Below, in pieces: positions 9,238 through 58,199 of a DNA stretch of 64,000 bases (position 1 is its first letter; every line of letters begins with the position of its first letter). The notes beneath the pieces were generated by a model that was given only the letters and a program-made list of their open reading frames with translations, was not told the DNA's origin and ran no database searches. The position numbers and the translations under genes were made by a program. Origin of the DNA: Psammoneis japonica (taxonomy: Eukaryota); NCBI GenBank assembly GCA_008632985.1, contig QPGO01000016.1:158840-222839 (forward strand), in the 5' to 3' direction.

Positions 9238-9999
9238 TCTGCTCTTTTCTTTTGTGGGCCTGGCTAGACCTGGAGCTGCCGGCTGGGGCCTGGCATGCTA
9301 ACAACGAGAAGCACACCCTCGCGCCAATCCAATCAATCCCATTGAAAGATCATTTTCACTTGTTTTAAAGATCACATCACAAAAATGGAAAAGCAGATTG
9401 AACGCTTCGCTGCTGGCCGGCCATTGTCTTCATCACCATGGCAAAAACAGAGTGATGGCTGGCAGCAACATCTGCTCAAAGCGAAAAACCTTTTGATCAA
9501 TGATGAGGGATGAGAAGCCATTTCTCACATCCTTCTTGTCCTTCTTGTGTTCAGAGGAAGGTGCCAAGACAGCTGGCTGGTTGGATCTTGTTTTCTCCTT
9601 GTCCCCTGCCAAAAAAGAATGAGGGTGATGTTGTTTGTTAAAGTGCTGAGTGCCACAGCAGAGTTGTTTGATGCAAAGAGCGCAAAAAACCTCTTCTTTT
9701 GACTCAGTTTTTATTCGGAATGGAGAACATGCACACACTGGGGAGGAAAGGTGCCCAAACATTTTTGCACAGCCACCCATTGGCAGCCCAGCACACCAGC
9801 CACAGTGATCAATGCAAGCAACCTGCTCAAGTCAAGGAAGAATTGGAAAACACCACGGGGAGGGAGCACCAGCGCCATGTGCCAGATTGTCAGCAACATG
9901 AAAGCTGTCCAGCAAAACAAAACCCAAAGTCCAATTTTAAGTGCTGCTGTGCTTCCACCCTGCAACTCCGGCAACAAGCTGGCCCACACTCCCAGTGCA

Positions 10000-12900: not shown

Positions 12901-15900
12901 TGTCAGCGGAGTGAATTTCAATGTCGATCTCGTCATTGTACGCCCGAAGGTGTGGCTCTCCATCAGCAGTAAAATGCCATTCAATGGCATGAAATGAGCA
13001 CTTTGGGAGCTCCAGCTCATGTCCTGCCGCATCCAAGAGGTCGCACCACAGCTGATCATCTTGCTGCATTTTAGGAACTGGGTCCAGCGCATCTGGTTGT
13101 GGGTCAGCACAGAAGGTGTTCACTTGATTCAAAGTGTCATCAACACACCCTCTGGCACACATCCGCATTGAAGCTGTCCTGTCGGGAGTTTCAAAGTGAG
13201 CCCCATGAGCTTGGCTGTCAAATGGCCAAAACAAGCTGTTGCAAATTTGATTCCAATAAAAGGGAGAATTTCCGCTGCCCTGGCCAGTGCCACAGACAGG
13301 GAACTCATCCGAATGGGAGTGAGATGAAGTTGAGAGACCAAGAACTGTCTTTAACCAGCATCTTGCGTCATGTAAAGCAGCGTTCGCCGTCTGAGTTGCT
13401 GATTTGGGCAGCATGCCGTTGCTGCGGCTTTCGAGTGCTGTTAAAGCAGGAATGTTGCGATCACAACATGAGGCACAATCTCCATCACTGTGAATTGCTG
13501 TTTTCCGGGAAACTCTGCTGATCTCGAGCATCAGTTCCTCAAGGCACACCGGAGCATGAGCATTCAAAAAGGGACGCGTCCCGCAGATGCCTGGATTGCA
13601 CAGACGACGGTGTTCCATGTTCTGCGCCAAGACTCTCCATTTCACGCTGGACGTCAATTGAAAATCTGCCTCGCAGACATGGATGACTCGGAGACAATGT
13701 GTCTTGTTGTTTCCCGGCTCTTTGAAAATCATGACGTTGACAATGTCCTTCCACCTGTTGAACGAGCACCCCCAACGTAGAGCACAGTTTAACAAATTCA
13801 AGCGAGTCCCAATCAGCCGCTGTTGAATGTCATTCAAATGCTGACACTCGGACGTGAGATCGCCTTTGGGGGTGGTGGAGCTTGAACAAGAATGAGCTGC
13901 GCCATTGCTTTCCAGTGTCCCAAATGAAGGCCCGAGAACATAGAAGTGGATGCAGTTTCCTTCCACACCTTGAGTTTCCCTTTAAGATCCGATTCAGTCA
14001 GGAAGTCAGACACCAACGCTGGTGACCGTCATCGAAGATGTTGAACGAAGAGAGCAGTGGCGCTGTTGAGAGAGGAAGTGTCACATTCTCCGTCTAAGAT
14101 CAGGTCAGCCACAACCGTGTCACCTTCGCACCCGAGATCCACGAACAGGGGAGGAACGGCAGGAGGTGCGCCATGTGCTTGTCCAAAGTGTCGCTGATTC
14201 CGAGAACACAATGCTGCTGAAACGTCGTCTGGGATGTCAGTCGTGATCCAATCTTTGCACTCTTTAGGACTGGCAGCCGGGTTGCGAGGGACCTGCATGC
14301 CATTGACTCCTGCACCATGTTTTGCTTTGCACACGTTGATCTTGCAAAACAACCGGGCGGTTTCTTCTGACTTCTGCACGTTCCGAATGATTTTAGCTGA
14401 TTTGCGGGCGGCCGCTGTCCCATCTAGGTCCAATTTGGCAAGCTTCTCTGCCAGTTCCCGTTCACGTTGCTCGATGCTCTCCTTTGCAACTGCCTTGCAT
14501 TCGGCCTGTGCCTTGCGCAAGGCAACCTGACATTCATGAAATGTCATTGGAATGGAGAATGAGCCCATCAGCTTTGAACGCACCTGCTGGATCTGGGCGA
14601 CGTGATCAAAACGGTTCCTCATCATGGAAAGAACACAAGTGAGGATGTGTGCTCTGCAGCGGAGATCTGCCAACTTGACCGACCAGTCGGGTTCACGGTG
14701 GGATCGACACTTTTTCGCGGATGCTGGGGAGAACTGAAGAAGATCTTGGTCCAAGCGTTTGGCCAATTCGTGATTCAGAGCATCAGACTCTGTCAGCTGG
14801 GTGGATCGTTCCAAGACAGAACGGCTCTCAAGCATGGGACCAATGGCGGTTGAGTGCAAGGTGACCTGGGGTTTGGATGAAGCCAGATCGACGGTGGGAT
14901 TCCCGAACAGTTCCATCGTGTCAAAGTCTACAAAATGTGCCCGATGATCTGACGTGACACGGCATCCAAATGCTTCACATCTGCCTGGGCGAGCCGCAGA
15001 CAAAGCTCCTGGAGATGCTAGAACATGGCCCAGTCTTTTGGAGCCTCTTGTGCATGTTGAAAATTCGGAAACACCAAGGATTTGGAACAGGACGTCGGAC
15101 AAATTGAATCGTTGGGCAAGTGTAGCTGGGGAGTCTGTGTCCAACGAGAAGTCCGCATTGAAGTCACCAAACAAGATCACTTCTTGGTCATTCTCCGCAC
15201 GAAACTCTTGGAGCGTGCGCGACAGGTCCGCACAGAAGGCTTTGCGGGGATCAGTGGAGTTGCGACCCTGTTGATGCAGCAAATGCAATTGTTGAGCGCA
15301 GGCTGTTGTCTTCCCTGGTTGTTTTTGGTTTTTAGCGCAGACTCTGTGGCATGATGCAAACATGACTTGTCGCCCATTGCGACCATCAAACACCTGAACA
15401 GACCACCGACCTAACGGATCATGCTCCTGGGAGCGGAGTCGGGCAGAGATGGAATTGCATGAGACAAGTGCAGCACCACCCGGTTTACATTGGGTAGAAA
15501 AGGGGGTGGAACTGCACGAAAACGTGCTTCGCCCGTGGAGGAGGGACTTCAAAATCGCAGACCGACACACAGAGAGCACATCGAACTGGGTGGCATCCAG
15601 ACACATTTCTGAAATGCCAACCACGTCCGCTTGAATTTCGTTGGCAATCTGACAACAACCGTTGAGATCCCCACCACACTTGTCAAACTTGCATCCATTG
15701 GCGTTGAAGGCACAGAGTCTAGTGTGGTGTGGCAGTTTCGACTGAAGTTCATGTCCAATTGATTCATTTGTCTTGAGGCAGGAAAAATCGATCCTGCGAT
15801 CTGCCGAAGGAGCACAGTGTCTGCCGTCCAGTGTGTGTTGCCATGCAGTCGAAGGTGCAGCTGAAGAAAGCTCGCTGTTCATGGTTGGGCCTCGCTCCTC

Positions 15901-16107
15901 CAAGGAGAAGACTGGGGCTTGTAGCGATGCAAAGGGAGTGAGGCAGTTTGAAAGGAGAACCTGCAATGTCGAGAGGTGCGGCGAAAAACGTGTGCCAACG
16001 TGTGGGACTCTTGAAGTGCAGAGGCAATGTCGGGAGGACGCCTGGTCTGTTGAGGGGGAGGAGGCGGCGAAGTCCAACCCCTCGCTAAAAATCCTTCTCT
16101 TTGTCAT
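10000..16107 (-). pseudogene. LINE ORF2: AP endonuclease, reverse transcriptase, RNase H, C-terminal CCHC finger; frameshifted and hypermutated
   Basis: APE: FNANG, GISE, ILFGDFNA, SDHR. RT: KEPGN, LRVIHVCEADF, SCCDR, GTGQGSGNSP, GCVDD. RNase H: GSDGSV, CCDNSSLV, WIKSHQD, NVRAD. Finger: CTHC..EDRDHMLRC. Confidence 0.9.
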
Positions 16108-17477
16108 GATGGTCGCCAGACCTTTCTGGTGTTTCGTTGTTGTTGGGACGTTTCCGTGCCATGCTCTGTGTGGGTTGGCCTGCCTGCAACAGTTGGACGA
16201 TCTGATTCATCTGTGACTGCAACCCAGACAGTTGTTGCGAGTGGCGGTCCTGTGTGGCCATCATGTCATTTGTGTGTTGAGTGGTGAACGTGTTGTTCAG
16301 TGCCTCCATGTCCCGAGAATGTTGTGCACGTGTCTCAGCGAGGGCTTTGTCGTGGTTCTCTTGCATTTGGCTCACAGTCTGTTGAACTTCTGCCAGCTGT
16401 GCTGTGGCAATTGACGAGCTGGCAGTCGACTGTGTTGCCTGTGCATGAGAGTGCGGGGAAGACGTCGCGCTGCGATGTCCAGGGATGCCACAGGAAGGTG
16501 GGGAGAACTGGGAGCAATGGGTGAAAATTTGAGGAGGCACTGCTGGCTCCTTGAGAAGTTCCTCGTCCAGGGTGACCTCTTCCTTCACGTCCACGTCCAG
16601 CAAGTGGTTTTGAAGCAGGTTGTGTCGAACCTGAAGCCTGATTGTCAGTCAGTGGAGAAACGTCCGAAAATGCAAGAGATTCGAGGCTGCGAATGCCAGC
16701 CGACACAACAGATTTGCTGGTGTCGGATGATTCTTCGAGAACGCCTGACACTTGAGGAGGTTCCGAAAATGGGGGAGATGGGTGAGATTCTTTCGAAATT
16801 GAAGGGATCAAATTCACAATGCACGTTGAAACAGTGGCACGGATGGTTTCGAAGTTCCAACGGTCCACAAGAATGTTGCATCTTCCATCAACAACCGTGG
16901 ATGGAAACATTCCCTTCACTCCAGTTGATGCTTTAAGGTGATTTTCGAAGTGGAACATCATGTCCAGGGCAGTGTTCAGCAATGGCACCACGAAGGCATC
17001 TTCATTGTGACAAGCTTGCGTCTTGACAGCGTTGCAAAATGCGAGAGGGGAGATGTGACGAGTTTTCGCCATCACGACATGAGTCGGGAGTTTGTTCGAA
17101 GCGCAGAGTGGGGCCTTGCCCACAGCGCGACATTCTTCGCGCAATGCTTCAATGGCAAAGGTGGCTGTTCGAAGCGGGGTGGCAAGTCCATCATTGTCGG
17201 CACAAATCGAAGCAGGTGCCAACCGAAATTGTGGCATTTTAGTGCGGAAGCTTCCAAGGTCACTGATGAATGATTTGGCAGCTTCGTCAACCGGAGCATG
17301 TTTGGTGGAAGTGGCAATGCAATGTGCTGGAGTGGCCGTGTCGATGTCAGACTCGTTCCAGAAATGACGTTTCACACCCATGTTGTTGGAGTCCAAAATG
17401 CTCTGGACATGTGGATGGGAACGCATTTCGCGCAGTGGAGTCTCAGTGAGCACACGGTGACATGGGCAATGAGTTGC

Positions 17478-17700
17478 CAAGCAAATCCAGCTGCCGAGTG
17501 GCTCAGCCACTCACAGCACTGGCATGATGACAACCCAACGATCCAAAGATGCTCTTGTGCCTGCCACAACTGCTCGCAACAAGTGAGCGCCATTGGAGGG
17601 AAAGACAACGCTTCCCTCCGACAACACGTCACAACGGTTGACTCAGCACCAGCCGTCACCAACAGCACTCTAACTAAATCCGATGCATCGGATTTCTTTC
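17478..17700 (-). repeat. 3' LTR of the Copia element
   Basis: Gap-free alignment to 24448-24670. Confidence 0.92.
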
Positions 17701-17870
17701 GGTCCCCTTGAAATGTTTCTAACAAGCCAAGGGCGTGCTTGACAGACACAATTCAACCAATGCAATCAACCACATTGACACTCCGTGCTGGCCATGGTGT
17801 AAACCCTCACTGGGGAAGAAAATCACCACCGACCCGATTCCCAAAAATCCAAACCCCATTTGCCGCCAAT

Positions 17871-20800
17871 TCAACAAGTGAACTTGTCCAACAGGAAATT
17901 GCGACGAATCGAAGTCATGACCTTCGTGAACAAATCCGCGAGGTTAGTTTCCGCATCCTCCTTTGCCAAGCGAACAGTCCCCGCAGCAACAGCTTCCCCA
18001 TTGCGATGGCATGCAATGGAATGATGCTTCTTCTTGAGAGCAGACTCCGGGATGGAGCAATTCTTGTGCACTGCTTCATTGTCACAGAACACGTTCGTAG
18101 AACCTTCAACAGGAACTCCAAACATTCGAAGCTTGCACCTCAGACCTTCAACAAGTTCCACCGCGACCTTGAGTGCCACGATCTCGGCGCCAAAAGCACC
18201 AGTCTCCGCAGTGTTCTGTCTCTTCGAATGCCAGATTGTGGGTGCTTGGCACAGGAACATCAGAGCACCTGTGTGACTGCGGTGAGTTGAAACGTCACCA
18301 GCATGGTTGGCATCCACGAAACAATGAGTGGACACAACGTTGCCTCGAGGTGGTGGCATGTTGGGGGGAATCGCATCTTGCGCGTCTCGGCAGAAGTCGA
18401 ACCAATCGCACTCATTGAACCTAGACTCGTCGATGACCGGATGCGCAGGATCGAACGCCACCCGACGCTTTGGGACCTGTTTGAGGCATGCAAAGACATG
18501 CAATGCCTGTTCCAAGTGACCAATGCGCGGCAAGGCAAGGTGAGCCGACATGTTTGACACTTCCAAAATGACATCGACCCTGCCCAATTCCACGGCCCAA
18601 ATCAAAACGCCAATCAGCTCTTGGCAGCAGTTGAGGCCTTCTGCATCCAGTTCGCCCGAAGCATCCAACTCCGGCTTGCATCCGCTGCTCAAAGGTGTGC
18701 ATGCTTTGCTCGGCAGCCGTTTTCCTTCCTTGGCCAATTTGTCCTCAACGTTCCGGACCGCCGCCTTGCAGTGTTCTTCTGCTGACATCGTCCAGCAGGC
18801 AGTGCCGTCAGCAAGGTCCATCTTCGACAATTTGGTGCCCAAGTGGGATTCGGGTTCCACTGCTTTATCGTCTTTGAGCTTGAACTTCGACTTGATGCCA
18901 TCCACAGTCTTCATCGGCTCATGACTGATCGACAGCAAGTCGTTGACGCACACCAAGATGTGCCCGCAGTGCTCGAATCCGTCTGGCTTCACTGCAGGCC
19001 TCATCCAAACGTCGGGATCAGCCTTGCCAGGCTTGTGTCCTAGATCATAAAGCGTCTCCACCAGGAAGGCCCTGAATGCCGCGCCGGAGCTCTTCAATCC
19101 GTAGAGTGCCCTGACTGCAATCATAATCTCACCACGTTCCGTGCCAAACTCTTCACCGGCACGAGTCCAAATTTTCTCTCGGCACGGCGCTGTCAAGCAG
19201 GCATTCTGGATGTCGCAGGCAAAGACTTGCAAGTCATTGGGCGCTGCAAGTGTAAGAGCAATCCTCACCGAATCCCTGGAAACAACTGAGGAGCAGGTGA
19301 TGGCAGTTGGGGTGTCGGTCATGTGACCACCCGCAACCATCCTGCTCTTGTGCCGAAAGTTCTCTCCCAACTTGATGTCAAAAATCATGTGACAGTCGAT
19401 TTGTTGGCACCCAGGAGGCAGTTCCGTTTCGTCCCCCTCGAACTTGTCGAACGCAACTCAAACATTCTTCATTTTTTTGCCACAAGGTGTTGCCGTTCGC
19501 ACGATCGAGCTCCAGTGCCTCCTTCACAGTCTTGGGAATTCGTGTGCCAAATTTGTGGGTTCTCAACCAATGCTTCGACTTAACCTTCGCAATGGAACGC
19601 TTGCGGGTCCTCATTGTGTGCGGAGCCCACCAAGCAAACGCCGGCTCCTTTGAGATCTTGCGTTGGATGGCGAACTCGGCGACCTGGACAGGGAATCCTT
19701 CCTTCGCGTCCTTCAGGTCAACCCAAGCAGTGCTGCCATCCTTCCATTGGAACAAGAGTTCCCATCCTTTCGTGGTCCTGCGTCGCCTCTTGTTGCCTTG
19801 CTCAGTTTCAAAGAAATCGGATTCCGGGACGTCCCCATTCGTGCGGAAGTCCACAATCTCGTCGAACAGAACATGCCGATTTCCGTCCTCGTCAATCTGT
19901 GCGAACATGTTCATGGCAACAGAGTTAGCTGAGAGTGCTGCAGTGTGACCATCGGGACACTCTGCCTGACACATTCGAGCATCTAGGATTGGGTTGTCGT
20001 TGGCTGTCCCAATGGGAATGCCACTCGCATCCCTCAACCTCTTCGTCACGTGCGCGAACTCGGGACAATCATCATCTCTCGGCAAAGCCAATTCCACATT
20101 GAGACAACCCCAATCCACCGCTTCCGGGGAGGCTTCCTTGTCTTTCTTGTCATCGTCCTTGTTTGACACATCTTCAGAACTGATGACGCGATCGCACTCG
20201 TCGAGGAATTCATCGTCATACCCAAGACAGTCCTTCCAGTCTTCGGGGCTGATCCTGCGCTCTTTGTCTTTGGGAAAATCTTGGTCACGAAGTCTGTGCT
20301 GGATCTCCTCGTCAAAAGCCTTGAACCAATCTTGATTCTCTTGAGTGCCAGCTTCCAAGTTGGTGACTCGCTGAACAGATGTCCGCGATGTGACANNNNN
20401 NNNNNNNNNNNNNNNNNNNNNNNNNNNNNNNNNNNNNNNNNNNNNNNNNNNNNNNNNNNNNNNNNNNNNNNNNNNNNNNNNNNNNNNNNNNNNNNNNNNN
20501 NNNNNNNNNNNNNNNNNNNNNNNNNNNNNNNNNNNNNNNNNNNNNNNNNNNNNNNNNNNNNNNNNNNNNNNNNNNNNNNNNNNNNNNNNNNNNNNNNNNN
20601 NNNNNNNNNNNNNNNNNNNNNNNNNNNNNNNNNNNNNNNNNNNNNNNNNNNNNNNNNNNNNNNNNNNNNNNNNNNNNNNNNNNNNNNNNNNNNNNNNNNN
20701 NNNNNNNNNNNNNNNNNNNNNNNNNNNNNNNNNNNNNNNNNNNNNNNNNNNNNNNNNNNNNNNNNNNNNNNNNNNNNNNNNNNNNNNNNNNNNNNNNNNN

Positions 20801-21945
20801 NNNNNNNNNNNNNNNNNNNNNNNNNNNNNNNNNNNNNNNNNNNNNNNNNNNNNNNNNNNNNNNNNNNNNNNNNNNNNNNNNNNNNNNNNNNNNNNNNNNN
20901 NNNNNNNNNNNNNNNNNNNNNNNNNNNNNNNNNNNNNNNNNNNNNNNNNNNNNNNNNNNNNNNNNNNNNNNNNNNNNNNNNNNNCCACTTTGCCGTCGAC
21001 CGCATCAGTCGCCCACTCGCCTCGAAGTTTCGGCTTCGTGAACATCCGATCCGCTCGACAACGCCTGGCCAGGGGCACAAGCGCCGATCTCACTAGCTTC
21101 TGGGTGGTCTTCTTCAATGTTGATGCCGCTTGTTTCAATCCAATGCCCCAGCGCTCGCTCAAGTCAACAGCGGTGACAGAACTGTGCCATTCCTTGGACA
21201 TGAAAGTCTTCGGGGATGGTGTGTCTTCGAGTTCCGAGCCGATTGTCTCAGTGGCCGCGATCTGAACATCCGCTTCCACCTGGACCAATGCTGTCAATCT
21301 TGATTGAACTTGGTCCACACCGCAGACAAGTCTCCCATCACAACAGTCCCCAGACTGAGGGTTGCTGCAATCAGGATCCTGACTGAACGCGCAGCTGGGG
21401 CTTGACCGAACACTTGCGACCGACCAAATCAACTCCATTTCCTCCTCCACAGAACGTCGAGGTCTGGGCTGCTTAAACTTGATGTTGTGTGGATCCCAAG
21501 GTTGTTGGGAGGTCAGCTGGATGTGTGGGCACTCTTGGAGCTCCCTGTCAGTGGGGGTCCGAGCAGCCGCAACGACACTGGCTCCCATCAACTCAAGAGG
21601 TAGCATGAATCCCTTGTCCTCCATAAGGACATGCAACGGTGACTCGGAACAGGGGTTGTCCTGAACCGTGATGCTGAAATGCCTCATCTGATTCGGGTTG
21701 AGGAGGGAATTCTCCATGGAATCTGCCATCCAAAGCCCCTCATGGAATGCCAGGATGCGCGTTGCTCCCGTCGCCGGTGAGGTCCACGCAGTGGCCACCG
21801 ATGCGATTGGGACACTCTTGATGGCTTCGTGTCCCTCGTTGTAAGGCGATGCGTCGCATTCTCTTCCAGTGCAACCCAAGAGGGTAAAGTTCGAACCAAA
21901 AACAGTGGTGTCAGCATGTGAGTCCAACTCTAGTCGTCCATGCTT
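17871..21945 (-). pseudogene. Copia pol (protease, integrase partly in the gap, RT, RNase H); hypermutated
   Basis: ELDSHADT protease motif, QWKDGSTAWVDLKD, MIFDIK, KSRMVAGGH, RALYGLKSSGAAF, ILVCVND, FVDANHAG, FCDNEAV, NLADLFTK. Confidence 0.95.
20396..20984. other. Assembly gap (589 N) in the integrase region
   Basis: Run of N. Confidence 1.
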
Positions 21946-22158
21946 TACCTGATCGTCTGTTCGGACGTGAGTGGCACGCGTGTTTGTCCGTGCCGCAGAG
22001 ACTCGTCATGTGGAAGCAGCAATTTCACAAATGCAACGACAGTCCCCATGAACCAACGTTTCTTTCGAACGATGCGGCTGGCCCCCGCCCCAATGAAGCA
22101 GCCACAATGCAAACTGGATGAGGCTACAAAGCAGGGTCCAGCTTGGGAGTCAGCTGTG

Positions 22159-24142
22159 TCACTGACGCTCCTGGCGTCCCCCAAATGCATCTCCGGCATT
22201 GTTGCCGCCTTGACCGCCAGTTCCTGCACCAACGTTTCCGGAATCGGTGCCGGCAGTGGTCTCCAAGGAAGAAATGGTGCGGTTCGCTTGCTCAAGCTGG
22301 GACGTCAGCTTCCGATTCTTCTTTTTAAGCGATCTGACGGATGCAGCGCGGCGCTTCGGGTTACCCGGCCTCTTCTTGAGTCCTAAACGCACATGCTCGT
22401 CCATGAGACGTGTTCCAGTCCCAGGTGACACACAAAACGACAATTCGATTTCGAATATAAATTATTTATCTATAAGTGTATGAAGCATTTTCATATAAAA
22501 TACTTAAGCGGATTGGCTTTTATAGGCGTCTAGAGTATGAATAATTATGAAGAATTAAATACTTTTTTGTGGGGTATCGATGTCCTCATGGGATATGCAT
22601 CATAAACTTCCTCAGTAGACTCAATACTGATTGTACGTCTGTACTCTTTATACGGAAATTTCTTTGTAAGTAGAAACTATACTGAAAAGCTTCGTAAAAA
22701 GATATATTTAGTTAACATCCAAATAACGGCAATAATTTCGTCGAAAATCATCCGTTGTGTTACGATTCGTTTATCGCAATGAAAAACATTGATGGCACAA
22801 TAACAATGATTTTGCAACACTCACACGAGTCTTGTCAGTGTTGCAAAACATTAGAATTTGAATAAATCTATACTTTTGGTGGTGAAAAACCGTTCGTAAG
22901 TCAGAGACCGCGCAAAAATCGCGCAAATGTCGTTTTTGTGCACGATTTGGGTCACGTGCGGCTGGAACACGTCATGACCTTCTTCTTGTCTTCCTTGCTC
23001 AATTGATGCCAATTTTTATGAAATCCGGTGTCAATGGACCCATCTTCTTTGTAAATGGAATCACCTTCCTTGCTGACGCCGGACGCAACAGAGGAAATCG
23101 CACGACGGCGCGCAACTGTTTCCGGGAGGGTGGCGACTTTAGTGGCAAGATGGTTGCACGCTGCAGTAAAACCAATCCCTCCTCCAAACTCATTCTGTGC
23201 CTTCAGGGTCTCTGCTGCGTTCTGCAACTGCTGGTGTTGCACCTTGTCGAACAGCAATCGCAGCTTCTGAGCCTCCGTCTTGGGTTCATCATTCTCTTCG
23301 AAAATGTCGAACATCTCCTGAAGCTTGTTCACGAATGTTTCGAACATCATGGAGCGTTCACTCCTGCAGTGCAGAGTGTTTTCCAAACGCTCAGCTTCCG
23401 AGATACGACGGGTGGCACCACCCTCGCCCTGACAGTGGTTCTCCAAAGATTCGCAGCAGAGACGACCGTTCTGGCTGTTGCGGTGCTCTTTGATCCACTG
23501 CTCGCTTGGGGTGCCTTTCGTGAACAAAACGATCAGCTGGCTGACGGCACGAGAATCAGCTTCGAAAGCTGGACCCTTGAGTGGAGCGCATGCAACCAAC
23601 TTCTGCACAAAAGTCTCATGCCCTTCAGGCTCGGGCTCCTCGTTCTCGCGCATGACATGAATCAACGGAATGCCGTCGACTCCCAGCATCGTGCCAAGCA
23701 TGTTCTTGAAAGCGGTGCTCCATTTTGCCCAGACCTTTTCGCTCTCCAAGAGTCCAGGGGATGCCTCACGAGCAATGGACTCGGATTGATCCCTCATCTG
23801 GCTGCGAATGTTGGCCCTCGACAATGCAGCAGACAGCGCATCGAGAAAACGCGCCTGATCCAAACCGTCGATGGTGGGATTTTCACCAACGCGTTGGAAG
23901 TCATGTGCCCAATGAACAAGGGACTTGAGGTGACGGGTGCGAGCCAATCCAAAGTGGAAACGCCCCTCAGCAGCAGTCCTCCTCGAGCAAGACTGCGCGA
24001 GCGCATCGATGTCTGATTCCCTCACATCGACAACATCGTCAAATGCAGCGACATCAGTCACAATCGCGTCACGCTGAGCAGGTGACTGGAAGCCGATCCA
24101 AGCAAGGGCCGTTTCCATCGGGTTCGGGGGGTTTGCCGCCAT
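22159..24142 (-). pseudogene. Copia gag, interrupted by MITE copy A
   Basis: ORF 22952-24142 (GVDGIPLIHVMR, APLKGPAFEAD, FTAACNHL) rejoins as KKKVM|DEHVRLGLKK and ends with the CoDi-type NAGDAFGGR motif. Confidence 0.88.
22407..22973. mobile_element. 567-bp MITE, copy A (interior retains TA)
   Basis: TIR GACGTGTTCCAG / CTGGAACACGTC (20 of 23 matched when extended); 4-bp TSD ATGA. Confidence 0.93.
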
Positions 24143-24447
24143 GGTGAAACTTGAGTCATTGTGGCATCACAAGACAAAGCAGTTGTGTTGGAAGCAGTGC
24201 ATCAAAACTTTGACGTTCACAAAATCGCGTTGACGACACGCGCAGGCCTTGAGAGTGCGGAGATGTGGCCTTGTCTCCCACTGCTTTGCGCATGCACTGA
24301 TGCGAAGGCATCACTCAACGGTGAACACCCTCAGGTCAGTCGGCATTCATCGTCAAAACTGTGCCATCATGACACAACCGTCACAATCACGTTGTTCATC
24401 GTTTTTCATCGCCAAACCGCGGAGTGCGGACTGTGGCTCTGACAAAG

Positions 24448-24670
24448 CAAGTGAATCCAGCTGCCGAGTGGCTCAGCTGCTCACAGCACTGGCATGACAA
24501 CAATCCAACAATCCAAAGATGCTCTCATGCCTGTTGCAACTGCTCGTAACAAGTGAGTGCCATTGGAGGGAAAGACAACGCTTCCCTCCGACAACACATC
24601 ACAACGGTTGACTCAGCACCAGCCGTTGCCAACAGTGCTCTAACTAAATCCGATGCATCGGATTTCTTTC
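24448..24670 (-). repeat. 5' LTR of the Copia element
   Basis: Gap-free alignment to 17478-17700. Confidence 0.92.
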
Positions 24671-24907
24671 GTTGCTGGGCATTTGTCACCGCCGCGATTC
24701 GTCGTGATGACAAAGTGTTGCTCGTGTTGGAGGGAAGTGATCCATTCTGCCACGTTGACATTTGCAATGCGATTGTTGTGGTTGTCAAGAATCTGAACGT
24801 CTTTGTGGCAGGCAAACAAAATTTGCTGCAGGACTTGCAAATGGGCGGTGGCAAGAGTCGTGGGCTTGCACAACGATTCTTCACCACGAGTTTCAAATCG
24901 GAGGGTG

Positions 24908-25473
24908 GACGTGTTCCAGTCCCAGGTGACACACAAAACGACAATCGATTTTGAACACAAATCATGCATCCATTAGTGCATGCAGCATTTTCATGTAAAA
25001 CACTTGAGCGGATTGGCTTTTGTGGGCGTCTGGAGCATCAACAATTGTGAAGAATTAAATGGTTTTTTGTGGGGTGTCAAATTCCTCATGGGATGTGCAT
25101 CATAAACTTCCTCAGTGGACTCAATGCTGATTGCACCACCGCACTCTTCATAAAGAAATTTCTTTGTAAGTGGAAAATGCACCAAAATGCATCGTAGAAA
25201 GATGTGCTTGTTTGACATCCAAACGACGGCAACAATTTCGCCGAAAATCATCCGCTGTGTTGCGATTTGTTTGTCGCGATGAAAAACATTGATGGCACAA
25301 TGACAATGATTTTGCAGCACTCACACGAGTCTTGCCAGTGTTGCAAAACATTAGAATTTGGACAAATCTACACTTTTGGTGGTGAAAAACCGTTCGCAAG
25401 TCAGAGACCGCGCAAAAATCGCGCAAATGTCGTTTTTGTGCACGATTTGGGTCACGTGCGGCTGGAACACGTC
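24908..25473. mobile_element. 566-bp MITE, copy B (TA-depleted), inserted in LINE ORF1
   Basis: Same TIRs as copy A; 4-bp TSD GGTG; colinear with copy A. Confidence 0.93.
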
Positions 25474-27419
25474 GGTGATTTCTTTGAACTTGCGCTCAGT
25501 TGGCTTGGAAGAAAGCTCAATGGAAGACTGGTCAACAGCAACATCGTCTGCCATGATGGCATCTTTGTTGCGAGTTGGGGTGGGGCTGCCATCAGCGACG
25601 GAAGAAGACGCCATGGTGGTTGGCTGTTCTGCGGGAAACCTGGCATCAAAATCACGCAGGCAATGTCAATGCGAGTGCGCGCAGAATTGTGAAAGCTGTC
25701 CAGCAAGAAGAGGGTTTGTTTGTGCAGCCCCATCTGGCAGATCCTCATGCAAAGCAAAACTGGGAATGAATCAAGGCATGTGGACCTGCCAACTCTCAAG
25801 CTCCACCCCATGGCTCTCCTCTAAAAATGGATCTCAAAAAAGGATGTGGACAAAAGAAATCATTCACTGTTGATGTTTTGTTGCTTTGATGAGATGGTTG
25901 AGCCAAGAAAGAAAAAAGGTGGCTGTCAATTGGATGCTCTGTGGCAGGCAAGAAGGGCTGATGGTCAGTGACAGGCTGGGGCATCAACACCTCTGTGTTT
26001 CACCACAACAAGCCAAGTCAATCATTGTGCAGCTTGACAAACAGTGAGTGTGAGGAAGCCTGTGGTCACCACATCTGACTCCACAAGAAGAAAAAAACAA
26101 AATGAGTTGTCAACTTTGTCCTGAGCCTGTGATCCATGGGTTGCGCAGTTTGCAACAAAACACCGCGGATCATGATCCAGAGGATGCAGGTGTTTCAGTT
26201 CCCATTTTGTGCAACAATGCAACAACTGCATGTGAGCTCACAAGAAGGGAGGACAACAATTGACAGAACTTGGTTTTTGGCAACTTTGCTGACTGAAGAA
26301 TCAATTTGTGGGTCCTCTGTCTCTCTGCTTGAGTCATGACAAGAAGACAGGGACCTCATCTCAGCAGGAATCATGTCATCAGATTGAATGCTGAGTTCCA
26401 CCATGGTCACTTCAGGTGCACAAGAGGGCTCTGAGAAGAAGGTCCTCAGGTTCAAAATGACACTGCACCACGAATGAGCAGATTTTGCAGCATGAACCCC
26501 CAGAATGTGATTTTGAATTGTTGATGGTGGCATGCTCTCACTGTGGAACAGCAATGGAACAATGTTCTGAATGATGCAATGTGGAAAAATTGAGAATCAA
26601 TTTGGCCAGCAGTCAATCATTTTCCAGCCAAAGAAATGACCAAGGCAGTTGCAAATTTGGAATGTTTTCTGTGACAAAATGAGGGTAATTTGTTGTCACT
26701 TCACTTGGCCAGCAAAAGTCATTGGGTGCAATTTTGTGCAAAGACCACTTGCAAATGAAGTGGTCAATCCCAAATGAACCCCGAGGACTTTTGTCCAACC
26801 AACCCATCCTGCAGTGGAAGGCTGTTGCTGGGTCAATGGTGAACAGCTGTCACTGAAATTTTCAGACGTCCAGCATCTCCAGATCACTGTTGCTGTTGCC
26901 ACAGGAAAAAATCATTGTGGCAGTCAAAATTCTTAGACAAATTGCATTCAAACAGATGAACCTCAGATTTTTTCCCTCTGAATTTTGTGGATGGCACAAG
27001 CAGGTCAATTGTTTCTCACTCCGCACCTGCTGCATTTTTGAACAGGCCTGCTTCTCCCCCAGAACAACTCCTCATGAGCAAACACAGCAGCAGCGAGAGC
27101 AAAATGAGAAAAGTGGAGGTGACCCCAGTGCTTCTGCACTGGAGGTGGAGGGGTCACCATGCCAGCATCATCATTTTGAAAGACACAGTGAATTTTTGCA
27201 TGAGATTTGGTCCAATCGCTCCAAGGGCCAAGGCAAGTCAAAAACACAATGTCAGCACTGTTTGTTGCATTCACCATTTGCCAAATGCATGTCTGCTGAA
27301 TCAAGCTCATGACGCACAAGTCACAGTTTGATTCATTGTGGCTCCAAAGTTGTTGCCAGCATGACTTGAATTGGAAAAACCCATCGGTTTGAAAAACACA
27401 CGCATGCAATCCAGACACA

Positions 27420-27830
27420 ACATGTGCACACATCAGTTTGGACAAACCACCCTTTTTGTAAAAAACAACACAGACCCCAATGCATGTGTGTGTGAAATTG
27501 GACAAACACACATCAGTTTGGACAAACCACCTGCAAAAAAATCATGTTCATCCCAGTGCACACACACACATGAGAAATTGGACAAACACACTTCGGTTTG
27601 GACAAACCACCCTGCAAACAAACAATCATGACACCAATGCACTCACACACAAGAAATTGGACAAACGCACATCAGCTTGGACAAACCATCCTGTTCACAA
27701 AAAACATGGAACCAAACAAACACATGCAAGAAATTGGACAAACATGCTGTGCAGCACATCAGTTTGGACAAACCACCCCGCAAATGAACAACATTTGTCC
27801 CAATGTGTGCACATGAGAAATTGGACAAAT
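27420..27830. repeat. Imperfect tandem array, ~75-85-bp unit (AAATTGGACAAAC...CAGTTTGGACAAACCACC)
   Basis: TTGGACAAA recurs about 10 times in alternating short/long spacing. Confidence 0.85.
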
Positions 27831-28341
27831 CTGCACAGTGCTCCGATGCATCTGCAGCACAGCATGTGGACTCTGCTGGCAGCCAGGGCTGCAGGTGGTG
27901 CAGGATGACTCTCTGTTCAAAAATCAAATGATCGTCGGGCCATCATCGCGATCGCGACACTCATGACTGTTGATGATGAGAGGTGGCGGAGGTTCCTTTT
28001 CACCGCGACGAATCATCTTTGCAAGCAAAACATGGACATGGATCCAAACCTGGATTTGTTGAACAGTCTGTTTGTTGGGGAAAACACAGAAGACGTTTGT
28101 CGTGCACTGCAAGCCGGCGCCGATTTGAACCATGCTGCATTTTGGGAAGATGACGGTGCTCCGTTTCAAGTCCTTTTTCATCTTGTTGGCGTTGTTCCAA
28201 CGCCAAGAAATGTCGATGCAAAATTGCAACTCTTGCTGGATGCTGGGGCACGCGTGAATTTTTGACATTCAAAATGTGGCTGGACCCCCTTGCTCCACTT
28301 GTGCCATCATGGGCGTGTGTCCACGGTTCGGATCCTTGTGT

Positions 28342-30135
28342 CACACTGACAGACATCCGAGATGGGGAGCACACTAACTTGTGTTGGACAGACTGGCGTG
28401 GACAGCATGGAGAGATCTGATGATCTCTCCTTTGCTCACTTTCTTTCTCATCTAGCACACGATTGTCATCTGTCCCAGATGTCCGTTAGATTGTCCCAAT
28501 GCCGCTGGTCTGCAAGGTTGTGAGCAGCAGTGTGCTGTTCCTCTTCCTCTGTGCTCCTCCATTGCAATGCCTGTTGTGTGATTTGGCGACCTTTTCTTCG
28601 TTGAAATCGTCATCACTGTCACAGCTGTTTTTTCACCTCTCGATTTGTGATCAAACAACCACCGCAGAACACATGCCAGAGCTCTGTGCAGGAATTTGAT
28701 TTTTTTTCCCGCGCAACCATGGTGAACAAAAATCAAGACGCCGTCAATTTGACCAAGATCAAGACGATGCGGGTTGAATTCAGCCCACACAATCGCTCAC
28801 CCGATGCCCACATTTTCCTGAATGCCTTCATTTGGATGAGATCCCTGCTCCTGAAGATCTTTTGGATGGATTCACCCCTCAAGGCCTCAAGAGCGATGCT
28901 GTCACTGTCCTCCGACATGAGATCGTTCACAATCTCATCATCCCTGAAGCCACCCTGACCAAAGATCTTGCGCGAATCGGGCCGATCATTGAAAAGGCTC
29001 CTCTCTTTGTGGCCACCCCTCAAGGCTCCTTGGTTTGCCTGAACCTCAGTGCTCTTCAGAAGACTGTGATCAAGGCGATCTCAGAGAACGACGACACCAT
29101 GCATGCATGTGTTGGGACTCTGCGTTTCTGTTTCAGCCCTCGTTTTCGGCATTGTGATTGCTGGGATGATGTCTCCGATGACCCGCATCCAGATCCACCG
29201 ACTGCTTCAAGTTCTGCATCCCCTCCGGTTGCTGCTGCAGGTCTCACTCCTGAAGACTGTGCCAAGGCCTTGGCAACTCATTTGCCTGGTCCAAACGGGG
29301 TGTGGGCAAGCTGTGGTTGGTGGGTTGAGGACCATTTCGAGCTCTCATGCACATGCTGAGTCCAAGTTGTGCCCAGATCCCGCTTCTGCTGCCAGTGGCT
29401 GCAACACTGCTGTTGCATCTCTTGTTGAAGATGCACTTGCTGTGGACTCTCGGATGGACCCTGCGGATGACAGAGTTCTTTGAACATCAAGTCTGCTGTG
29501 TCCACCACAGAACCAGTGGGTGAGCCATCTGCAGCTGTTGATGCCAGGTCCCTTGCAATTCCCACCGAATCGGCAGCACTTCCTGCCGACGTCCATGCCT
29601 GCCTGCTTGAGACCCCAAAGTTTTTTGTTTCAGCGGGCCACTCTGTTGTTCCATGCAAAAAGGGCCACACTCACCTCAAGGATGGACTGCTCTCTCTTGC
29701 CAAGGTTGCACCCAAGCTGCTTGCCACCTGCATCCCGCCGTCATCGGATGCTTGCGGATGCCGCCAGCACTCTGTTGGTTGTCAAGTTGATTCGCACTTG
29801 GATTTGTGGTTTGGCCGTCGTTGACTTCGGACACACGATGCCGCCATTCTTTCCATCATCCAAGCAAGACCAATGGAAGCAGGGCAGTTGTGAAAGAGGG
29901 CCACGGAGTCTTGCTGCCTTCTGCCATCACGTCTCTTTCCTCCGTTGTCAGGACCGTTGTCGTGTCCATTTGCACTTTTCATGGCACTCTGGACCTGTCC
30001 ACCATCGCTGATGATGATCCTTCATTTTCTGATCAAGGGAGGGAGCAATGTTGTGCAGAGGAAGTGTGCACGATTGATCATCACACCAACTCTTCCAGTG
30101 TGTCGCCTCTTTCCTTCACTGTCAAGACCGTTGTG
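28342..30135. mobile_element. ~1.8-kb unclassified insertion in the ankyrin gene
   Basis: Removal restores the ankyrin frame. Flanked by a GTGT(C) direct repeat with CACA...TGTG ends. Contains a decayed unidentified ORF at ~28720-29800. Confidence 0.6.
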
Positions 30136-30610
30136 GTGTCGAGTGGCATTGGTGCGGCAGTCAACGCAAGAGAAACCAGGCATGGTTTCATGCCTCTGCA
30201 TTTCACCGCAATGAATGGATGTGGTGATGTCTGTCGGTTTCTTCTGCAGAACAATGCTGACGTGGATTCGAAGTCACTGCAGCGGCAGATGGCCGAACAG
30301 CTCTTCACATTGCCGTCAGCCGCTTGGATCGAGAAAGCATTGTGAGACCACTTTTGGAGCATGGAGCGAATGTGAGTGCCACAAGCGAGAGAGGAGGAGT
30401 CACGCCATTGCACATGGCTGGCAAGTGTGGCAGTGAAAGCCTTGTGAGACCACTGTTGGAGCACGGCGCTAATTTGAATTCCAGAGCCGAGAATGGGTTG
30501 ACACCATTGGACTGTTCCACCAAATGTGGCAACCACGGTGCCACCTCTGCCTTGATGGAAGCGCATGGGCAACAGCTGTTGTCGCACGATGACATTCCGC
30601 GAGCGCTCTG

Positions 30611-31754
30611 GGACACACGGCATTTTGTCGCATTTGGCGACATTTTCTTAAATGAATTGATGATTTGTCGCGAAAAGACGCGAACTGCGACAAAATGTCC
30701 GGGTTGGCGACAAACGGGACAGAAACATTGTTCAATTGAGTCACAAAATGATTGATGTCATTTGTGACCAACCTGCACTTTGGTGGTGTCGTTTCAACAA
30801 GTGGGGCAATTGACCAAATTTGGCGATCGATGTCATCGACAAAAATTCACCCGACAAAATTTGTCGCATCCAACAAAATTTGTCGCACCCGACAAAATTT
30901 GTCGGACATCCGACAAAATTTGTCAGATGTCTGACAAAATTTGTCGGCATGCGACATGACAAGACACGACACGACACGACAAGACACGACACGACAAGAC
31001 ACGACACGACAAGACACGACACGACACGTCACGACAAGACACGTCACGACACGAGGACTCACGAACGAAACACCCACGCCCCCCGCACATGCTGACCGCT
31101 GACGTCTCCGTTGACACTGCCGTTGTGTCTCTTTTGCACGATGATGCAAAGCGACGATCATGCCACTCTCGGCGGTCTCCATGCTCTCGTCAATGCCGGG
31201 ACAACATCGCACGCTTCTACATGGTGCAACGGAGTGCGCCGGCATGCATTGCTGCACTGTGCCTTTTGTCAGCACGGCTGGGCACTTCTGAATGTTGGGG
31301 AGTGTTGCATTGTCGGCATGTTGCAAACGTCTGTCTGTCAGTGTTTGTCGGCTCTTGTCGGCTCTTGTCGGCGTTTGTCGTACATTGTCGGGGTTTGTCG
31401 GGGTTTGTCGGGGCTTGTCGGGGCTTGTCGGGGTTTGTCGGGGTTTGTCGGACACGACAAAATTTGTGGCACGTCCGACAAAATTTGTCATGCATCCGAC
31501 AAAATTTGTCGCATGTGCGACAAACTTGCCAAAACATCGGTTGACAAGTGCAGTCTTTGCCGAAAGTCAAACTCATCATGTGGCACTGCAGTTGATGTGA
31601 CGTTTGTGTTTGGGACACGTCATCACCAATTGAATGATGATTTTGTCTTGTTTGTCGCCAACGGTTGAAATTTGTCTCAAAGGGCGTTTTTCATGACAAA
31701 TCGTCCAATTCATTTGTGGGAATGTCGCAATTGGCAACAAAATGCCGTGTGTCC
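30611..31754. mobile_element. Non-autonomous TIR element (PIF/Harbinger-like by 3-bp TSD) filled with mini- and microsatellites
   Basis: TIR GGACACACGGCATTTTGT (18 bp perfect, ~70 bp imperfect); TSD CTG; removal restores the host frame. Confidence 0.88.
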
Positions 31755-33805
31755 CTGGGCCCATGTGTTGGCCAAGGTGGGGAGCAGGAGCACAGACGTG
31801 TCTAGAGTGGGCCTTGTCACAGTGGTTCAAAGCAGCATCAGCTTCGTAGAAACATTTTTTTTTGCACCAGCGCAGAACTGTGCGCATGTGTCTGGTGCAC
31901 AAAAATCATGCCACATCAACCATTTTCTCCAATCTTCGGCAATGGCGGCGTTTGTCGGTTCGCAGCTGTTGCGCTGCTGAAACCATGTCAATTGTCATCA
32001 AACCTGTGGCACGTCACTTGTCACCCTCTTCTCAATTCATGTGTTCCTTTGAAACTGCGCATTCTTTAGCCTCAATCCAGACAATCAACAACATCAACAC
32101 AAGGTAAAAATCCAAAGCAGATGCGATTCCTCGGGACAAGCATGCGCGAACTTTTGCGTCTGAGCCACTGGATGCCGCCGCTCATTGCATCTACTTTTAG
32201 CTTCTTCACGGTGTCAGCATCAGGCGCGGTGTCGAATGAGTTTCTTGATTCACTTGTCACTGTTGTAAAGTGCGGCATGTCTGTGCGGTTCGCAGTTGTA
32301 CGAAACCAATGACCCAAACAGGACACACGCTGATCCGATTTTGCTTCCTAAAAATCATCAAAATTGGGAGTCCCATGACCCAATTCACCCCGCCTCTGCT
32401 TTTCTAGCGCCTCTCCAATCACCTGTCGTGTGTTGCCATCCCCTGATTCACACATGTCCTTCATGAGATCCATGATCCCATCTGCGCGGTTCTCCTTGTT
32501 GTTTAGTTTGCTTGCAGCTTTTCGCTTGTCTGCTCAAATCTCTCCAGAACTCACAGCTCCAGAAATCCGTTTTGTTCTTGTCCAACTTGACAATCACCTT
32601 GTCCGCTTTCACCACGCGTTTCGAAAATTCCGGGTCAATGTCATGCGACAAGCTGTCCTTGGTGAGGCGATGAGATTTCCCGCTCAACTTCTTGACGACC
32701 AAATCAAATGAACACTTGGCAAAGGCACAAGCCACTTGATCTCGAGGAATTGATCTGACACTTGGTAAAGGCACAAGCCACTTGATCTCGAGGAATTGAT
32801 CTGACGCAAGAAAAGGGAAGAGGCGCGCAAACAGTTGCAAACGGAGAGTTGAAGTTGCCGGCATCAAAGAGAACCAACCAATGGGTGCAAACTTTTGTCC
32901 GGGACTCACTGCAGGTGGATCTGTGGGGATCAACACTGATGGTTCTCTGGCTCGGTTGGCGCCAGTGTTTCTTCTTCGGCAGCCAATTTGCTTTCTGCGT
33001 CAGACTCTTTGTTGGCCATGGTGTGACTCTTTTCCACACTCTTGAGCACCCACCCAGAGATTGTTGAGGACAGGTCATTCCAAAAGAGAACCAAAAGAGC
33101 AGAGAGTGAATGAATGAGGAGCACTGCTTGTCAACATGGTGTCATGTGGCCACAAAGCAGTGCAAGGCATGAGACGAATCTCAACTTTCAATGAACAGTC
33201 ATTGCAAGGCATGGCACTGGGATGCACAGATCAAATGGTGTGGCTCGCGCCACTTTGCCAGGGGAGAATCAGGCGGGACAGTCTGTCAGATGCTGCTCCA
33301 GTTGTTGTTCTGTTTTCTGCAATGCAGCTTTCACCACCTGTTCTTCCAATCAATCCACTTCATCTGATGCTGCCAAGGGGCCTTGGTGTTGACAGATCCC
33401 CCCATCAAGGTTGGATCTTGCTGCTTCATTGGCACTCATCAGTTGCTGTGTGCCAATGGGTTGCTCTTGTTTCTTGAATTCCTTGTTGATTTCCTTGGCA
33501 CTGATTGCGGCTGCTTGGGCTGCTTCTTTGACCTTTTCACTCAGTTCATTGGCAGCTTCGCGAGGGTGGGGTCATTTGCAATTTCAAATTCCAGCCTCCC
33601 GCACAATTCTGCGGTTTTGAGTACTGTCATGAGCACCTCCGACACAGACATCTATGAGTACCGGTATTTGATGCACAAAGCACAAAGATGACAACATCAC
33701 AACATCATGCATGATGCGTGAGCCTTTCAACTGTTTCAGCACGGTAAAGGAGCATCGAGAATCTGCATCAAACCATCAGAAGAAGCATGGTGTCAGCAAA
33801 CGACA

Positions 33806-58050: not shown

Positions 58051-58199
58051 ATGAGAAACACCGTAATCAATTAATTGAAACCCTCCTCCTTTGTTCCATT
58101 GTTAACACATTAGGAAACGAACGGTGCAAGTGTTCTTTTCTTGACGTTTAAAAGGATGCGGGGGGTGTCCTCTCCAAGGCCTCTGTGTTGCAATCGCTT

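Follow-up and report, generated by a model that had tools for sequence, protein, structure and literature searches.

Two copies of one transposon point to a TpA-directed mutator in the diatom Psammoneis japonica

Within a 64,000-nucleotide stretch of the Psammoneis japonica genome (contig QPGO01000016.1, positions 158,840 to 222,839 of the forward strand; hereafter the window), two copies of one miniature inverted-repeat transposable element (MITE) lie 2.5 kb apart, one of which (copy A) is rich in TA dinucleotides while the other (copy B) has largely been stripped of them. This raises the question of whether the pair offers a before-and-after view of a mutator and, if so, in which direction that mutator works, on what DNA, and whether copy A reached its site only after its surroundings had been altered. 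The explanation that we consider best overall, and probable, is a mutator that acts on TpA after insertion and has hit copy B, with copy A as a late arrival. Comparisons beyond the window draw on the whole genome (91 Mb, 597 contigs), from which loci, numbered with the prefix L, were fetched. Of the matches listed for one host gene (at least 120), every one that carries a species name comes from a diatom.

A pairwise alignment with a context table, the check suggested in the initial annotation, shows the two copies (567 and 566 bp) to be colinear end to end at 87.8% identity. The 47 TA steps of A read TG in B in 20 cases, CA in 17, CG in one and TT in one, and eight are still TA; a hand count of about 38 TA sites that had become TG, CA or, once, CG is thus made exact at 38 of 47. 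None of the 37 TG and 35 CA steps of A reads TA in B, in agreement with the earlier claim that the reverse change is absent (0 of 72; sign test on the direction of TA loss 38:0, p = 7e-12), and the three sequence examples quoted at the time are all present in the alignment. Altogether 69 columns differ, 39 of them at the 38 TA sites and 30 elsewhere; the latter are scattered, as had been noted, although their number had been put at about 25, and 13 are assigned to A’s own branch and 17 to B’s. A:T>G:C transitions account for 49 of the 69 differences, and with both strands counted A>G is concentrated at As that follow T (39 of 94), while As preceded by any other base changed in 10 of 269 cases (p = 1e-17). 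Copy B has lost 41 of 50 scored ancestral TA sites (82%) and 1 of 25 CG, whereas in copy A only 3 of 49 TA sites are gone (6%).

The wider family was sampled with an exact 23-base left-end pattern, which occurs at 90 places, all of them fetched, and which biases the sample towards intact left ends; from a DNA similarity search with the MITE, 312 candidates were seen and 40 scored. The 95 sequences collected comprise 75 copies of 500 to 600 bp, 11 longer ones and nine without a right end. By TA content, the 75 copies, which form two subfamilies, divide into 28 TA-rich (45 to 56 TA), seven intermediate (17 to 39) and 40 stripped copies (2 to 14), the last with a mean TA loss of 86%. Ancestral states were drawn from the TA-rich copies, and the finer tests leave out nine copies that are over 10 transversions away from both subfamilies and, later, also two duplicates. 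The element is typically 555 to 567 bp long, carries terminal inverted repeats and contains no open reading frame (ORF) of 200 amino acids; 4-bp target duplications match in 69 of 73 copies, with no consensus among the target sites. It is thus a MITE in being short and abundant, with inverted termini, target duplication and no coding capacity, and from these sequence features A and B are two insertions of a non-autonomous cut-and-paste DNA transposon of about 560 bp. A 4-bp target duplication would be Sola-like, although an autonomous partner with the diagnostic transposase did not come to light: the 16 copies that are long or unpaired yielded no recognisable transposase, their extra length reflecting nested inserts or truncation. 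Copies also occur in clusters, with nested and adjacent copies in L077 (G000:C184:25000-34000) and an inverted pair in L037 that has 35 of 39 outcomes in common. A 48-bp imperfect palindrome lies inside the MITE (window 22805-22852) and is present in most copies.

The family shows that TA is the ancestral state and that TG and CA are derived, because of the way in which TG and CA are split among the copies and because of the tree, not because of a consensus built from TA-rich copies. All 38 sites that distinguish A from B are TA in the TA-rich copies of subfamily 1, as are 34 of the 38 in subfamily 2, and the same TAs are common to the 28 TA-rich copies across both subfamilies. Stripped copies, on the other hand, disagree among themselves: some have TG and others CA at 47 of 51 sites in subfamily 1 and at 54 of 55 in subfamily 2 (101 of 106 in total), and compared pairwise the outcomes differ in 4004 of 9343 site comparisons. 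A purine/pyrimidine tree, which is blind to transitions, scatters the stripped copies among the TA-rich ones. Two sister pairs differ almost only by TA loss: L021 and L087 are separated by 43 TA losses, two CG losses, three other A:T>G:C transitions, one gap and no transversion, and L002 and L018 by 44 TA losses and a single transversion.

These observations show that a DNA-level mutator converts TpA to TpG or CpA (A:T>G:C) once an element has inserted, that it acts on either strand and separately in every copy, and that it does so far faster than background. The change was made in chromosomal DNA after insertion, since the two long terminal repeats (LTRs) of single elements differ by such swaps and since a TA target duplication has been mutated on one side only, reading TA...CA in L150 and TG...TA in L151. 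Among nine LTR pairs compared, two were duplicates and two truncated; the other five show five to seven CA/TG swaps with 0, 0, 0, 1 and 5 transversions. In the Copia element that surrounds copy A, six of the seven LTR swap sites are TA in other copies of the element and none is CG. Three Copia LTR loci, L098, L099 and L100 (G000 C141), lie about 20 kb apart with 0 to 2 differences, probably because a segment was recently duplicated in tandem or because the assembly repeats it.

The two strands are affected to a similar extent, with 775 TG and 906 CA in the 40 stripped copies. The seven intermediate copies are each balanced as well (TG/CA 8/8, 11/11, 15/13, 15/15, 15/12, 14/15 and 19/18), which argues for several rounds, or for repair that fixes both strands, over one single-strand burst; the part of the earlier inference that saw a cumulative or episodic process is borne out in that accumulation over more than one event is supported. 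We do not rely on the balance being tighter than chance, for which the signal is weak (p = 0.015 for 37 copies, 0.056 for the seven intermediate ones). Runs of same-strand change along a copy show a small excess (755 vs 718 +/- 17, p = 0.02). Transversions do not rise in stripped copies (medians per copy 4 vs 4.5 in TA-rich ones, p = 0.93; rates 0.51-0.55% vs 0.40-0.54%). This is no proof of a burst: arithmetic on the figures for the chlorarachniophyte Bigelowiella natans in the available part of a preprint (211 changes, 6169 TpA, 3132 generations; Mettrop et al., bioRxiv 10.64898/2026.01.13.699255) would give about 1e-5 per TpA per generation, at which an 86% loss would be reached in about 2e5 generations, a span too short for background changes to become visible. 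The loss of CpG sites lags behind (10 of 707 in TA-rich, 8 of 174 in intermediate and 212 of 982 in stripped copies). Stripped copies seem to leave no offspring and not to move again, judging from how rarely they share outcomes: only 2 of 396 pairs have more than 85% in common, and both are duplications of one insertion (L017/L048, with common flanks and target duplication, and the pair within L037), the next best pair reaching 25 of 30. For L136, copying of inserts from already stripped donors was considered and rejected, since outcomes equal those of six sisters at only about 50-65% of sites.

The mutational fingerprint is narrow. In 30 stripped copies, at columns invariant in TA-rich copies, A>G affects 861 of 2216 As in TA, 101 of 3200 in AA, 23 of 1746 in CA and 18 of 1421 in GA, that is, 39% per strand in TA vs 3% in AA, so that TA exceeds AA twelvefold even near saturation. 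Within TA, the context hazards are 1.37 for TAC, 1.36 for TAT, 0.76 for TAA and 0.63 for TAG, so that TA followed by a pyrimidine (TAY) changes about twice as fast as TA followed by a purine (TAR). In 37 copies, an A just 3′ of the TA (+1) has changed in 20 of 203 cases where the TA became TG vs 8 of 280 where it became CA (p = 0.0014), the events being spread across 15 sites and 15 copies, and an A at -2 shows 26 of 297 vs 11 of 330 (p = 0.006). Three independent sets of long interspersed nuclear element (LINE) and Copia sequences agree with this when pooled (15 of 338 vs 7 of 409, p = 0.03), though not one by one. We read the +1 effect as co-editing of As on the same strand, as expected of a deaminase that works on opened DNA but equally of polymerase errors made in tandem.

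The mutator is confined to putatively silent repeat blocks, with genes spared, and B has passed through it while A has not. Across the window, the observed/expected ratio (o/e) of TA is 0.4-0.8 in gene blocks and below 0.25 in 31 of the 64 one-kb bins. Six repeat-block ORFs have a TA o/e of 0.08-0.16 and 0-0.4% tyrosine, against 0.39-0.72 and 0.5-5.4% in seven host ORFs; stripping thus recodes proteins, since tyrosine is nearly lost from the repeat-block ORFs. A LINE-type endonuclease ORF (window 14029-16206, minus strand) has zero tyrosine in 725 residues. Judging from the sequence, repetition alone is not a sufficient trigger for TA loss, because TA is normal (o/e 0.49-0.67) in two host tandem repeats (56657-58008 and 3681-4100) as well as in L125/L134, two genes with 85% identity. 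Two DUF4832 paralogues (45136-46481 and 61651-63004), 64% identical, are both TA-normal as well. Gene-like duplicates can be stripped as well: several copies of a DNA-cytosine-methyltransferase-like gene (L129, L130, L131 and L135; G000 C297, C301) are surrounded by DNA that has lost its TA (o/e 0-0.11) and differ from one another by CA/TG swaps, and no close intact parent was seen, while their relatives L125, L126 and L132 are TA-normal.

The idea that TA content can rank insertion ages does not hold across families; it is only roughly a clock, within one family and before saturation. Nine nested cases were found, in six of which host and insert are both stripped and in one both TA-rich, while in two the order is reversed, with more TA lost from the younger insert than from the host. 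In L038, the insert is LINE-like; 53 of its 58 TA-type sites are gone, through changes that its sisters do not share, against 23 of 49 in the host MITE (p = 4e-7). The insert’s sites were deduced from variation, so that its loss is somewhat overestimated, and the host’s target duplications do not match. In L031, where they do, the host MITE has lost 19 of 49 sites and the insert is more stripped (TA o/e 0.21); the host is itself patchy, with 9 of 36 sites lost left of the insert vs 10 of 13 right of it (p = 0.002). Because of these two cases, the rate of loss must depend on locus and sequence. L031 contains, at 1556-3137, a second family with terminal inverted repeats, about 1.58 kb long with TA target duplications and 54 candidates in the genome, which we take to be Tc1/mariner-like. 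Over the 75 copies, TA loss, which saturates, does not follow transversion divergence (rho 0.15, p = 0.21); among non-rich copies, transversions correlate with CpG loss (rho 0.43, p = 0.002) and less with TA loss (rho 0.22, p = 0.13), and TA loss goes with CpG loss (rho 0.60, 47 copies). Nor was TA loss correlated with how far the flanks are depleted of TA (p = 0.19 and 0.58). The flanks of subfamily-2 copies hold 1.5-2.6 CG per 100 bp where the copy is TA-rich vs 3.0-3.9 where it is mutated (p = 0.003-0.007), a difference absent in subfamily 1; perhaps the mutator is drawn less to DNA whose CG has been eroded.

Copy A very probably landed after the Copia element had been stripped of most of its TA, as the initial annotation had supposed. 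It interrupts the minus-strand element between the 5′ LTR and a protease-like motif; the statement that it sits in a mutated Copia gag and is TA-rich stands as to Copia and TA content, whereas "gag" describes position only, the ORF having no Pfam match. An empty site with a single target sequence was found at nine other Copia loci, three of them near-identical duplicates, and a contig of run X1 joins 22401 to 22973, so that 571 bp are skipped. Right of A, Copia retains 4 of 63 TA-type sites, and the chance of A’s low loss is below 1e-6 even if the MITE changed six times more slowly than Copia. A is typical of TA-rich copies in this, because 26 of the 28 lie between two stripped flanks. An outside chance remains for the same mutator with A not late, in that an AT-rich MITE interior, or a bound protein, would keep A out of targeted chromatin. 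The lagging host MITEs of L038 and L031, the latter with a cold patch of about 350 bp, and private transversions that are alike between the classes would fit such an escape, as would the 4-100 bp flanks, which hold more TA beside TA-rich copies (47 in 28 copies vs 27 in 38, p = 0.0003; one of five distance bins significant). Yet the lagging hosts still lost 39-47%, against 6% for A; B, 2.5 kb away, lost 82%; and the TAs retained beside A are mostly retained in other Copia copies too (6 of 13 vs 21 of 78, p = 0.19). The nearest flanks have about 2.4 times more TA in TA-rich than in stripped copies, with no difference beyond 100 bp, an excess that may reflect local spreading, shielding or insertion preference. 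That A shields its own flanks was hinted at by three of four kept TAs lying within 170 bp of it, a hint that fell on comparison with other Copia copies.

We see next to no chance for the opposite direction, ordinary change of the repeat-induced point mutation (RIP) type, in which a B-like sequence would be ancestral and A would have gained TA from TG and CA. The family consensus, put forward earlier as the arbiter, does lean that way, the plain majority of 25 subfamily-1 copies reading TG or CA at 29 of 51 sites, but it is misleading as a test, because stripped copies outnumber intact ones. DNMT-like genes are also present in the genome (27 PF00145 matches, none assigned to DNMT4 by a tree), and diatom DNMT4 enzymes, of unknown function, may be relatives of RID, a link with moderate support according to the available part of PMC9998398. 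The split of TG and CA at nearly all sites refutes this direction, since the stripped copies have no one common state; the TAs common to 28 copies in two subfamilies, the loss of tyrosine from stripped ORFs and the TA target duplication that changed after insertion also speak against it.

As for the mechanism of the preferred TpA mutator, a new insertion would at first be left alone and then be targeted once its locus is silenced; a targeted copy would lose most of its TAs over several rounds, with CpG decay following about ten times more slowly and the rate set by locus and sequence as well as by time. Because stripped copies would stop giving offspring, mobile lineages would stay TA-rich. 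The lesion may arise when an enzyme of the TadA/ADAT type deaminates the adenine of TpA to hypoxanthine where a strand is locally open; this is the likeliest chemistry, to which we give about an even chance, and a deaminase on an opened strand would explain both the TAY preference and the co-editing of neighbouring As. Adenine base editors derived from TadA/ADAT2 likewise make A>G changes, prefer a T on the 5′ side and edit nearby As as bystanders, although a natural nuclear enzyme of this type is only a candidate. The deaminase matches in the genome include, by motif likeness, presumably a dCMP deaminase, TadA-like and ADAT2-like proteins, RibD, a deaminase-dioxygenase fusion and two ADAT1-like proteins; the putative ADAT2-like gene (L116) is expected anyway for tRNA editing. 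The fusion (L115:313-1785, minus strand) combines a cytidine/adenosine deaminase-fold domain and a 2OG-Fe(II) dioxygenase in one ORF and is probably metabolic, though by its sequence still a candidate. The A_deamin (ADAT1/ADAR) domain occurs in two separate genes, L120 (G000 C40) and L121/L122 (C79), with no extra domain in the pieces scanned.

Two other routes to the lesion are each rather unlikely. Error-prone repair synthesis of the polymerase-eta type, triggered by T:G mismatches from methylated CpG, would account for TA and CpG loss going together, for AA as the second target with tandem AA>GG, and for the CG-poorer flanks of TA-rich subfamily-2 copies; however, subfamily 1 shows no such difference in its flanks (p > 0.7), transversions do not rise, B lost 41 TA but only one CG, and the polymerase-eta motif WA takes in AA as well as TA (PMC7884765, available part), whereas here TA exceeds AA twelvefold. 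Alternatively, the T of TpA might be modified, for example to an oxidised thymine pairing with G, giving T>C in R-T-A. The sequence by itself cannot separate A>G from T>C, TAY being RTA on the other strand, and thymine oxidation occurs in repeats of other protists; there is no positive evidence for it here, where no search was made for thymine-oxidising enzymes. Editing of transposon RNA or cDNA during transposition by an ADAR-like enzyme, by contrast, has a vanishingly small probability and is refuted as the main route, even though two A_deamin-domain genes are present and ADAR has a preference for U on the 5′ side: a MITE does not pass through RNA, each copy has changes on its two strands in roughly equal number, swaps separate the two LTRs within a single element, and the ADAR2 hotspot is UAG (PMC10661471, available part) while TAG is the slowest context here.

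Several points weigh against the explanation that we favour. The ancestral states come from TA-rich copies, so that the direction has to be carried by the TG/CA split and the tree. The late arrival of A is something that we infer and do not see directly: none of the 75 copies is a near-identical donor, the nearest differing at 28 columns, and private transversions are similar in the two classes (20 in 27 TA-rich vs 38 in 32 stripped copies, p = 0.09-0.17), from which it follows that some TA-rich copies may be old escapers. As to co-editing, the independent sets do not reach significance for either neighbour offset taken by itself (p = 0.16 and 0.18), the left Copia set has no neighbour effect (0 of 37 at +1), and context alone could explain the effect at -2. 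Finally, the search for the enzyme brought up what looks like an ordinary set of deaminases, with no extra or unusual one evident among the matches, which number at least nine for PF00383, four (in two genes) for PF02137 and five for PF14437.

The features of the locus are collected in Table 1. Copy B sits 236 bp outside the 5′ LTR of Copia, and the reverse-transcriptase catalytic motif was looked for and not located. Some stretches of the window (26000-28000, 48000-49000 and 58000-61000) are without both TA and CG (CG o/e about 0.1-0.3) and are probably older relics than Copia, whose CG o/e is 0.8-0.9.

Table 1. Coordinates of the two MITE copies and their surroundings in the window
Feature	Position	Strand	Remarks
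MITE copy A	22407..22973	+	TA-rich (47 TA), subfamily 1; terminal inverted repeats 12 bp perfect, 20/23 matching
Left 4-bp target duplication of A	22403..22406	+	ATGA; 9 other Copia loci have the empty site; one contig lacks 571 bp here
Right 4-bp target duplication of A	22974..22977	+	ATGA
MITE copy B	24908..25473	+	TA-stripped (9 TA), subfamily 1; terminal inverted repeats also present
Left target duplication of B	24904..24907	+	GGTG
Right target duplication of B	25474..25477	+	GGTG
Copia 5′ LTR	24448..24671	-	20/224 positions differ from 3′ LTR, all transitions, 7 of them CA/TG swaps
Copia 3′ LTR	17478..17701	-	
First Copia ORF	22952..24166	-	Ends at copy A; gag by position, no Pfam match; Tyr 0.2%, TA o/e 0.08
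Copia reverse-transcriptase ORF	17871..19457	-	PF07727; Tyr 0.4%
TA-depleted transposon block holding Copia, A and B	6000..33600		TA o/e 0-0.16 per kb, apart from the bin holding A; sharp edges, position approximate

Among known systems, the closest is that of B. natans, in which, according to the available part of the preprint (bioRxiv 10.64898/2026.01.13.699255), integrated DNA of nucleocytoplasmic large DNA viruses and virophages is hypermutated at TpA. De novo TpA>TpG/CpA changes arose there in two viral inserts, the rate being about 6e-7 per site per generation, some 1000 times background; only some lines (11 of 15) were active, and ADAT2 was proposed as the enzyme. The likeness lies in A:T>G:C change at TpA giving TpG/CpA on both strands, in silent foreign DNA and with uneven activity; here, too, the change is nearly only A:T>G:C, restricted to TpA on either strand, with genes spared and CpG decay as an extra. 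That study also notes TpA-poor DDE and reverse-transcriptase genes. The differences are that our organism is a stramenopile, that the targets are DNA transposons, LTR elements and LINEs close to saturation, that CpG decay runs alongside, and that TAY preference, same-strand neighbour edits and nested order were measured. A live rate was measured in B. natans, whereas here the mutator is known from its footprint alone, and the bimodal copies are only compatible with line-restricted activity. The main text of the preprint, in its available part, does not mention diatoms, trinucleotides or CpG, though its supplements may hold context data, and no diatom report of TpA hypermutation was found in the literature searched, which did not cover subscription journals.

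The comparison with RIP is one of likeness in effect and opposition in chemistry. As in Neurospora and other ascomycetes, dense dinucleotide-specific transitions strike repeats on both strands and inactivate transposons. RIP, however, makes C:G>T:A and creates TpA, which is here destroyed, and not one TG or CA of A has become TA in B. Duplication alone is no trigger either, as tandem repeats are TA-normal and A is intact 2.5 kb from B, an argument weakened if A is late. With polymerase-eta in somatic hypermutation the process has in common A>G after a weak base at targeted loci, beside C>T, and differs in the dominance of TA over AA and in transversions that are not raised. It differs from ADAR-type editing in striking both strands and in having TAG as its slowest context.

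Taken together, the mutator works like RIP in effect but is not RIP, and the direction is confirmed for a process so far known from one other alga and one preprint. A second lineage with TpA-directed hypermutation would raise that observation to a genome defence more widespread among eukaryotes, its chemistry being the reverse of that of RIP. The 75 MITE copies are natural replicates of one substrate and provide a context and bystander fingerprint by which candidate enzymes can be judged; for base editing, too, a deaminase that naturally acts on adenine in DNA would be of interest. In genomes of this kind, transposon ages and consensuses are distorted, with divergence inflated and majority consensus sequences TA-poor. 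It is tempting to speculate, and we do so tentatively, since we think it possible rather than probable, that diatoms and chlorarachniophytes have in common a dedicated DNA adenine-editing defence, in which a nuclear adenine base editor would be recruited to newly silenced, CG-methylated insertions, edit TAY and neighbouring As on an opened strand, and so end their mobility. If this is true, transposon lineages would survive only by hopping before being marked.

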